Below are positions 6,050 through 14,121 of a stretch of DNA of 64,000 nucleotides, piece by piece. The notes beneath the pieces are model-generated. The model saw only the letters and a program-made list of their open reading frames with translations. It was not told the origin of the DNA and did no database searches. This DNA is from Escherichia coli (GTDB lineage: Bacteria > Pseudomonadota > Gammaproteobacteria > Enterobacterales > Enterobacteriaceae). Location of the stretch: NCBI RefSeq assembly GCF_003334765.1, contig NZ_QOWT01000012.1; one strand, 5' to 3'. Numbering within the stretch: position 1 is the stretch's first letter; every line of letters starts with the position of its first letter. Position numbers and translations under genes: made by a program.

Positions 6050-11601
<5,552 letters not shown>

Positions 11602-11603
11602 CA

Positions 11604-11945
11604 ATGCGAATATTTGTCTACGGCAGTTTACGCCACAAACAAGGCAACAGTCACTGGATGACCAATGCCCAGTTACTGGGCGATTTCAGTATCGATAACT
11701 ACCAGTTGTATAGCCTGGGCCACTATCCAGGCGCAGTTCCGGGGAACGGAACAGTACACGGTGAAGTTTATCGTATTGACAACGCCACGCTGGCCGAACT
11801 TGATGCCTTGCGCACCAGGGGCGGTGAATACGCGCGCCAGTTGATTCAGACGCCGTACGGGAGTGCATGGATGTACGTTTATCAACGACCCGTCGATGGA
11901 TTAAAGCTAATTGAAAGCGGCGACTGGTTAGACAGGGATAAGTAA
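11604..11945 (+). CDS. ytfP: Gamma-glutamylcyclotransferase family protein YtfP
   Basis: 113-aa ORF MRIFVYGSLRHKQGNSHWM... (AIG2-like YGSL motif). Confidence 0.85.
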   Translation: MRIFVYGSLRHKQGNSHWMTNAQLLGDFSIDNYQLYSLGHYPGAVPGNGTVHGEVYRIDNATLAELDALRTRGGEYARQLIQTPYGSAWMYVYQRPVDGLKLIESGDWLDRDK

Positions 11946-11954
11946 TAATAAAAG

Positions 11955-11982
11955 CACGCCACCTTCGGGTGGCGTTGTTTTA
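11955..11982 (+). terminator. Rho-independent terminator downstream of ytfP
   Basis: Hairpin ACGCCACC-TTCG-GGTGGCGT followed by TGTTTTA. Confidence 0.7.
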
Positions 11983-12282
11983 TGCGATGTATCTCGCGAT
12001 TTTTTTTTGTAACTTTTCCATCTTTTGCTTTTCTCTCCGAGCCGCTTTCCATATCTGCAATCGCATAAAAAACTCTGCTGGCGTTCACAAATGTGCAGGG
12101 GTAAAACGGGGGCACGCTTTGAACGGTGAGTATGAGTGAGGTCGGCTAACTTCCAGCAAGTGGCTATGAACAGCAAAATGGTGGTCGGGTTTGCTTGTTC
12201 TTACCGTTCAAGCCTTGCAACCGCTGAGAATAATGATGGTGGAATAGAGAGTTTATTTATCGCGGGCATAAAAAAACCCTTA

Positions 12283-12324
12283 CTAACCGAAGCCCGGCGT
12301 TCAGGGTTATTGCGCTAGAAGAAC
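12283..12324 (-). terminator. Probable intrinsic terminator downstream of ppa
   Basis: On the minus strand, a GC-rich hairpin (…CGCCGGGCTTCGG…) followed by a T7 run immediately after the ppa stop. Confidence 0.5.
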
Positions 12325-12855
12325 TTATTTATTCTTTGCGCGCTCGAAGGAAGCAACGATTTCAGCTTTAGCGGCTTCTGCGTTTTCCCAACCTTCAACT
12401 TTCACCCACTTGCCTTTTTCGAGGTCTTTGTAGTGCTCGAAGAAGTGAGCGATCTGCGCTTTCAGCAGCTCTGGCAGATCGTTAACGTCTTTAATGTGAT
12501 CGTATTCTTTGCTCAGCTTTGTGTGCGGAACAGCAATCAGTTTCGCATCTTCACCGGCTTCGTCGGTCATTTTCAGAACGCCAACCGGACGGCAACGGAT
12601 CACAGAACCCGGCTGCAGCGGGTACGGAGTCGGGACCAGTACGTCAACCGGGTCACCGTCCAGAGACAGGGTGTGGTTGATGTAACCGTAGTTGCACGGA
12701 TAGAACATCGCGGTGGACATGAAGCGGTCAACGAACAGTGCGCCGCTCTCTTTGTCGATTTCGTATTTGATCGGATCTGCGTTAGCCGGGATCTCAATAA
12801 CAACGTAGATGTCTTCCGGCAGATCTTTACCCGCAGGGACGTTGAGTAAGCTCAT
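12325..12855 (-). CDS. ppa: Inorganic pyrophosphatase
   Basis: 176-aa [35 protein letters not shown]...; matches Ppa. Confidence 0.95.
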
Positions 12856-13164
12856 GTCTGTTTCCTTTAAAAATATGTGGCAAACAAGTGCCGAGTATTA
12901 TAGCCAACTCGCGCCGAATGTCTTCGCTTGTTTTCGTCTTCATTTTCCTTTTTCGCCAATTTTAAGACGGTATACAGAGCAGGAAAATCCATAACCGTAG
13001 CCGCATTTTTCATAGTGAGATGAAAGCGATTACAAACTTGTGATTAACGTTTTATTTACTTCTTTGAAGTGTGATGTAACGCAATCCGTTACATAACGAA
13101 TTGTCTATAGTTTTTTCGCGAACATCTTTTCACCAATAATAATTACCCCGACGAGGACAACCCT

Positions 13165-14121
13165 ATGTGGAAACGCTTACTTGTAGTCTCTGCAGTCTCG
13201 GCAGCCATGTCGTCTATGGCGTTGGCCGCTCCATTAACCGTAGGATTTTCGCAGGTCGGATCGGAATCTGGCTGGCGCGCCGCAGAAACCAATGTGGCGA
13301 AAAGTGAGGCCGAAAAACGCGGAATTACGCTGAAAATTGCCGATGGTCAGCAAAAGCAGGAAAACCAGATTAAAGCGGTACGTTCCTTCGTCGCGCAAGG
13401 GGTGGATGCGATCTTTATCGCTCCGGTGGTTGCGACTGGTTGGGAACCGGTATTAAAAGAGGCGAAAGATGCCGAAATCCCGGTCTTCTTGCTCGATCGT
13501 TCTATTGATGTGAAAGACAAATCTCTCTATATGACCACCGTCACTGCCGACAACATTCTCGAAGGCAAGTTGATTGGTGACTGGCTGATAAAAGAAGTGA
13601 ATGGCAAACCATGCAACGTGGTGGAGCTGCAGGGCACTGTTGGGGCCAGCGTCGCCATTGACCGTAAGAAAGGCTTTGCCGAAGCCATTAAGAATGCGCC
13701 AAATATCAAAATTATCCGCTCGCAGTCAGGTGACTTCACCCGCAGTAAAGGCAAAGAAGTCATGGAGAGCTTTATCAAAGCGGAAAACAACGGCAAAAAC
13801 ATCTGCATGGTTTACGCCCATAACGACGACATGGTGATTGGTGCAATTCAGGCAATTAAAGAAGCGGGCCTGAAACCAGGCAAAGATATTCTGACAGGTT
13901 CTATCGACGGCGTACCGGATATCTACAAAGCGATGATTGATGGCGAAGCGAACGCCAGTGTTGAACTGACGCCGAATATGGCAGGTCCCGCCTTCGACGC
14001 GCTGGAGAAATACAAAAAAGACGGCACCATGCCTGAAAAGCTGACGCTGACCAAATCCACCCTTTATCTGCCTGATACCGCAAAAGAAGAGTTAGAGAAG
14101 AAGAAAAATATGGGGTATTGA
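13165..14121 (+). CDS. ytfQ: ABC transporter periplasmic sugar-binding protein (galactofuranose)
   Basis: 318-aa ORF with signal peptide and periplasmic-binding-protein fold signature; first gene of the ytfQRT-yjfF cluster. Confidence 0.88.
   Translation: MWKRLLVVSAVSAAMSSMALAAPLTVGFSQVGSESGWRAAETNVAKSEAEKRGITLKIADGQQKQENQIKAVRSFVAQGVDAIFIAPVVATGWEPVLKEAKDAEIPVFLLDRSIDVKDKSLYMTTVTADNILEGKLIGDWLIKEVNGKPCNVVELQGTVGASVAIDRKKGFAEAIKNAPNIKIIRSQSGDFTRSKGKEVMESFIKAENNGKNICMVYAHNDDMVIGAIQAIKEAGLKPGKDILTGSIDGVPDIYKAMIDGEANASVELTPNMAGPAFDALEKYKKDGTMPEKLTLTKSTLYLPDTAKEELEKKKNMGY

Follow-up and report, generated by a model that had tools for sequence, protein, structure and literature searches.

The interval between ytfP and ppa in the E. 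coli DNA studied here is very probably a dead chpSB locus, from which a toxin-antitoxin module was lost by deletion and decay, and not a site where the module was never present. Throughout, the window denotes the whole stretch of 64,000 nucleotides (64 kb) that was analysed, and coordinates are positions in it. Judged by its sequence, one segment of the interval is a decayed, non-coding fragment of the toxin gene chpB, of the unitary pseudogene type; this relic apparently encodes nothing and is inert. What still works in the interval is the ytfP terminator, along with a putative ppa terminator.

The interval is bordered on the left by ytfP (11604–11945, plus strand, from the ORF call), which encodes a gamma-glutamylcyclotransferase family protein identical to WP_001219160.1 as annotated in matching genomes, and on the right by ppa (12325–12855, minus strand), which encodes inorganic diphosphatase. 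Further out on this stretch of E. coli chromosome lie tamB (7822–11601, plus strand) and ytfQ (13165–14121, plus strand). All four genes were confirmed by annotated genomes that match at 100% identity. The original prediction had described a TA-free interval of about 380 bp, with a terminator hairpin and no ORF, at a site where K-12 carries chpS/chpB. The measured length is 379 bp (11946–12324), and the gene order ytfP, chpS, chpB, ppa is indeed seen in the K-12 strains CJ236 and MG1655. In CJ236 the gap between ytfP and ppa is 886 bp, and MG1655 is a 100% match to the K-12-type chpSB. The K-12 genes measure 252 nt (chpS) and 351 nt (chpB), and a published table gives their order, with spacers of 211 nt and 79 nt (PMC5120126).

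The relic lies at 12118–12242 on the plus strand and is homologous to chpB nt 19–145 (codons 7–49), with 72–74% identity. When it is aligned with K-12 chpB, 92 of the 125 aligned bases are identical (73.6%). A blastn search of the 64-kb window with the K-12 chpSB region gave 72.4% identity over 127 nt (E 1.7e-12), and a local alignment scored 108, compared with 24.1 ± 3.3 and a maximum of 39 for 2000 dinucleotide-preserving shuffles (z = 25). At the protein level, tblastn with ChpB against the 64-kb window returned a single weak match (residues 15–42, 50% identity, E 0.002), located in the interval. The relic is syntenic with chpB, having the same orientation and flanks collinear with K-12. 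It thus corresponds in site, orientation and flanks to the chpS-chpB module of K-12 (also chpBI-chpBK), a member of the MazEF/PemIK family. The expectation that the interval would hold no sequence homologous to chpSB was therefore not borne out.

What is left of the gene carries several marks of decay. About 60% of the toxin gene is missing from the relic, which has no start codon, a premature in-frame TGA at 12127–12129 and two frameshifts caused by single-base deletions, one after 12138 and one after 12187. The 33 substitutions relative to K-12 chpB are distributed 11/11/11 over codon positions 1, 2 and 3, and the GC content has fallen from 0.54 in chpB to 0.48 in the relic. Such an even spread over codon positions fits neutral decay and not a functional, divergent allele.

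The remainder of the module is absent from the window. At the first junction (12109–12117), about 310 bp of the K-12 sequence are missing, comprising the chpS promoter and operator, the entire chpS gene and the start of chpB. In their place stand 9 nt, GGGGCACGC, for which a comparison with the chpS promoter region and with chpB nt 10–18 of the orthologues gave no match. A tblastn search with K-12 ChpS found nothing in the interval, and its matches in the rest of the 64 kb were noise (E > 2). ChpS orthologues from several genera, eight in all, likewise had no match on the window allele. Ten to fifteen nucleotides or so 5′ of the chpS start, a perfect or near-perfect palindrome, AGTTATACTTTGTATAACT, was found in 11 of 11 intact alleles from several genera (positions 2024–2042 of the K-12 locus, L001, and the equivalent positions in L007–L011, L033, L042, L051, L069, L072 and L086). 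The palindrome presumably serves as the operator of ChpS/ChpSB and overlaps the −10 region. Even when three mismatches are allowed, the window contains no match to it.

The second junction, together with the 3′ end of chpB, lies at 12237–12247 on the plus strand, where TGGTGGAATAG corresponds to the last codons of chpB (GTGGTGGAATAA in K-12). Here about 190 nt inside chpB (nt ∼146–338) have been deleted, between CTGGTGG and GTGGTGG of the intact alleles. Since short repeats are found at the deletion ends, deletion at short direct repeats by slippage is a reasonable mechanism. For the first junction, intact alleles have GGTAAA in the last part of the left flank as well as at the start of chpB (ATGGTAAAG), which makes it a candidate microhomology. 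Because the 9 nt at this junction cannot be assigned, the left breakpoint is not fixed exactly and microhomology is an unproven model.

Compared with K-12 chpS-chpB, the window thus has no antitoxin gene, operator, promoter or toxin start, and cannot work as a toxin-antitoxin module. An intact ChpB ORF (116 aa, PemK/MazF family), which together with an antitoxin gene directly 5′ of it (ChpS, about 83 aa) and an operator-promoter characterizes a functional module of the MazEF type, is likewise absent. The description of the allele as TA-free holds in the sense that there is no functional chpSB, but the locus is a degraded and once-occupied one and not an empty site.

On both sides, the relic is embedded in sequence shared with alleles that carry chpSB. 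The left flank (11946–12108) ends in GGGGTAAAACG (12098–12108) and corresponds to the 159–160 nt found 5′ of the chpS promoter in K-12. It contains the terminator hairpin of the original prediction, ACGCCACCTTCGGGTGGCGT, with an 8-bp stem including 6 G-C pairs (11956–11975) followed by T-rich sequence. In the terminator scan, this ytfP hairpin is terminator-like on both strands, and it is present in all alleles aligned. The scan also gave a second, small hairpin (11983–11998) followed by a T9 run, the whole spanning 11983–12008 on the plus strand. The predicted fold of 11946–12010 has an energy of −24.5 kcal/mol (z = −4.5), and none of 200 shuffles was as stable. On the other side, the right flank (12248–12324) is common to K-12, with 72 of 74 nt identical. 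It includes the putative ppa terminator (12270–12308, minus strand), with a stem AACCCU...AGGGUU (12275–12308) and a U-run reaching 12270. The stem is present in the predicted fold, where its z-score is not significant, and it is conserved in all alleles; a function as ppa terminator is presumed.

The left flank differs more from K-12 than its surroundings do. Its identity to the K-12 flank (L001, 1843–2004) is 84%, compared with 99.1% for ytfP and 98.1% for ppa. The left-flank haplotypes do not follow the presence of chpSB: in locus L009 the flank is window-like (95%) and the operon is intact. This shuffling indicates, at the level of sequence comparison, that recombination has occurred around the left flank of the ytfP-ppa interval.

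In order to place the relic among related species, we scanned for YtfP in one genome per species, which gave 80 loci, and then located ppa, ChpS and ChpB in these. Intact chpSB was found between ytfP and ppa in E. whittamii and three other Escherichia representatives, and at the same site in Lelliottia, Enterobacter asburiae, an Enterobacteriaceae isolate, Pseudocitrobacter and Kluyvera. The relic seen in the window, with both its junctions, was also found in E. albertii NBRC 107761 and in another Escherichia species representative (L010); the junctions are identical in all relic subtypes. Many species of Citrobacter, Klebsiella, Kluyvera and Enterobacter have gaps of 99–170 bp in which no chpSB was detected. 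Separate chpSB relics occupy the site in Citrobacter sedlakii (L029), where the part corresponding to ChpB residues 63–107 is left, and in Enterobacter cloacae DSM 26481 (L035), where it is ChpS residues 1–31. Being independent and different, these relics show that loss of chpSB recurs. The distribution indicates that chpSB at ytfP-ppa is old in the Enterobacteriaceae and has been lost repeatedly.

The gap is also a hotspot for other cargo across the Enterobacteriaceae (loci L013–L086, from locus position ∼3343). The inserts include a gene for an Hcp (TssD)-toxin fusion in Salmonella arizonae and Citrobacter youngae, and a gene for a methyl-accepting chemotaxis protein in Enterobacter soli, Silvania and Pluralibacter, along with other ORFs. 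No EsiB homologue was found in the larger gap inserts of other genera.

Divergence was measured over chpB nt 19–145. The intact Escherichia chpB genes differ among themselves by 1.6–4.7%, and the relic differs from every one of them by 24–30%. Relics within E. coli differ by 0–6%, and the E. coli relics differ from the E. albertii relic by 12–17%. With the relic at 24–30% from all intact Escherichia chpB genes, the loss appears to be old. The shared junctions, the roughly equal distances between all relics and all intact genes and the species split within the relic clade all point to a single old loss of chpSB. This loss probably predates the split between E. coli and E. albertii, an age that is read from the divergences, and the relic may later have been exchanged between species.

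A distance of this size raises the question whether the relic descends from the Escherichia gene at all. It lies about 26% from all intact genes sampled, and none above 80% identity was found; the syntenic chpB genes of Escherichia and other genera include no intact parent closer than about 75–78%. Decay of the Escherichia orthologue is thus hard to separate fully from descent from a chpB allele that had diverged before, and an origin from some other chpB- or mazF-like gene that is not orthologous to Escherichia chpB could account for the distance. However, the relic is nearer to Escherichia chpB than to the chpB of five other genera at the same site: identity is 73–75% to Escherichia chpB, against 62–69%, or no full-length alignment, in other genera, those compared being Lelliottia, Enterobacter, Pseudocitrobacter and Kluyvera. 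Moreover, the even spread over codon positions fits decay, and both flanks are those found around intact chpSB. We therefore consider such a foreign origin unlikely.

The opposite view, that the allele arose lately within E. coli by deletion from a K-12-like chpSB, gains something from the flanking genes, which are 98–99% identical to K-12. It is very improbable nonetheless, as the relic is far more distant from the intact Escherichia chpB genes than these are from each other, and as a relic with identical junctions is found in E. albertii, already clearly diverged from those of E. coli.

We also looked for any product or signal in the interval. That there is no ORF is correct in the biological sense, as no credible gene is present, but not in the mechanical sense, as ORFs of 56–82 aa exist. 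None of these had a family match in NCBIfam. A scan of 11000–13500 against Rfam at E ≤ 1 gave nothing within the interval, the sole match being a sub-threshold S15 leader inside ppa. Nor did a promoter scan find any sigma-70-like site within the interval; the only site was in the ppa promoter region (12924–12897). The longest plus-strand ORF (12136–12318, 60–64 aa, or 60 aa when GTG-initiated) crosses the relic in another frame and continues across the putative ppa terminator. The window, L010 and E. albertii have it open, whereas it is broken in E. coli str104, SCU-111 and A37, and annotated as a hypothetical protein in one sampled genome. We rejected it as a gene because it has no NCBIfam match and is not conserved among the relic subtypes.

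The persistence of the relic across species boundaries, and the fact that this ORF is open in three of the loci, could be taken to mean that the relic has been kept in a new role, that of a small RNA or small protein, or of a 3′ regulatory region of ppa. We give this little credence, since the interval has neither an Rfam match nor a promoter-like site, the ORF lacks a family match, crosses the putative terminator and is broken in three strains, and divergence in the relic is no slower than in the adjacent non-coding flanks. That the window instead shows the ancestral ytfP-ppa spacer, into which K-12 gained chpSB by insertion, is hardly credible: many Enterobacteriaceae do have short chpSB-free gaps (100–170 bp) and toxin-antitoxin modules are described as often acquired horizontally (review PMC7167474), but the gap of the window is 379 bp long and holds chpB-homologous sequence that is correctly ordered and oriented and whose stop-codon end adjoins the shared right flank.

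The frequency of the relic was determined in 5426 complete E. coli genomes. The relic, searched for as a 146-nt core, was present in 2322 of them (43%, a figure that includes esiB genomes), in one copy each and always on the chromosome. K-12-type chpSB was found in 3100 genomes (57%), and esiB, the gene of a secretory IgA-binding protein, in 188 (3.5%). Identity of the relic to that of the window was at least 99% in 1528 genomes, 95–99% in 106, 90–95% in 687 (a band represented by the loci of str104, SCU-111 and A37) and 80–90% in a single genome, HH45. Together, the counts for relic and chpSB amount to 5422, with HH45 in both. Because this sum covers nearly all of the 5426 genomes, the relic and chpSB are essentially alternative states of the locus. 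The near-complementary counts also argue against a chpSB elsewhere in the genome from which the window comes. In almost all relic genomes sampled, the relic is unannotated.

A few genomes show other states. In HH45 (L003, 1370–1640), 101 nt inside the relic are 100% identical to K-12 chpB, and the relic also has a 131-nt G/C-rich, low-complexity insertion; PGAP labels this version a partial PemK/MazF family toxin pseudogene. We considered HH45 as an intermediate and rejected it, as the G/C-rich insert suggests that it is probably an artefact of assembly or else a single case of gene conversion. E. coli N50 (L088, 1–4006) represents a rare state in which a bgl-like operon beside ppa, with a licT antiterminator, a GH1 glycosidase and a beta-glucoside PTS IIABC, replaces the usual sequence on the ytfP side. 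In FDAARGOS_1250 (NZ_CP069571.1, 477168–479196), an IS1A copy is found in the gap of an otherwise 100% identical ytfP-ppa stretch.

The locus is known to be polymorphic. Among 47 complete genomes, chpBS was reported in 53%, esiB in 15% and neither in 32% (Pastorello et al., 2013, mBio, PMC3735183). The allele of the window corresponds to this "neither esiB nor chpBS" state. In the accessible text of that study, the third state is a simple absence and no chpB remnant is mentioned; here, the absent state carries the relic. Short repeats flanking esiB are also described there, and in esiB-carrying strains we find the ytfP terminator hairpin duplicated, flanking esiB on both sides. In E. coli A37 (L087, 2334–4368), esiB lies between the two copies of the hairpin and is followed by the relic. 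Unlike in the accessible account of Pastorello et al. (2013), the esiB state thus also carries the relic, at least in A37. Its position 3′ of esiB means that the esiB allele is derived from the relic allele: in this one genome, esiB is inserted into an already decayed allele.

Decay of chromosomal toxin-antitoxin modules at conserved E. coli positions has likewise been described (Mine et al., 2009, on ccdO157, and Fiedoruk et al., 2015, both as cited in PMC7167474). The process seen with ccdO157 is the same, a chromosomal type II module degenerating by deletion, nonsense or frameshift mutation. The present case differs from ccdO157 in that the module is another one, that its decay has gone very far, with the antitoxin wholly lost, and that the relic is common to several Escherichia species. 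The literature searched, a set to which Fiedoruk et al. (2015) and Ramisetty and Santhosh (2016) did not belong, nowhere mentions the chpB relic. The TA-free allele, the three-state polymorphism of the locus and the decay of toxin-antitoxin modules are all already known, and the allele itself is common and ordinary; what is added here, namely the relic and how old it appears to be, is modest.

Taken together, the dead-locus reading suggests the following course of events. In an ancestor within the genus Escherichia, ytfP and ppa would have been separated by chpS-chpB, a type II toxin-antitoxin operon. One deletion would have taken the promoter and operator, the entire chpS gene and the start of chpB, and another the chpB codons ∼50–112, between the CTGGTGG and GTGGTGG repeats; the order in which the two are given here is presumptive. 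The remnant, about 125 nt of the 5′ part of chpB and its last few codons, would then have drifted as non-coding DNA, acquiring the two frameshifts, the early stop and ∼26% substitutions. The fossil in the ytfP-ppa gap shows that the direction of change in Escherichia was loss and not gain.

Possibly, though we hold this to be rather doubtful, intact chpSB and the fossil were already alternative states of the site before the split of E. coli and E. albertii, and both have been kept since then by balancing selection or by repeated re-introduction. If true, the presence or absence of this toxin-antitoxin module would be a trans-species polymorphism. Balancing selection could, for example, result if ChpB were by turns beneficial and costly in phage defence or under stress, and in the case of re-introduction the intact allele would have returned by homologous recombination between Escherichia species. 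The deep divergence of the left flank (84% identity, against 98–99% in the neighbouring genes) would then be a footprint of the coexistence.

The relic leaves the knowledge of how chpSB works unchanged, and it is a further instance of a chromosomal toxin-antitoxin module that has decayed. Its presence means that surveys scoring chpSB as present or absent, together with the non-annotation of the relic by PGAP, hide a toxin fossil in 43% of complete E. coli genomes. Provided that the estimated age is right, researchers would have in this locus a convenient natural system for studying why both states persist.
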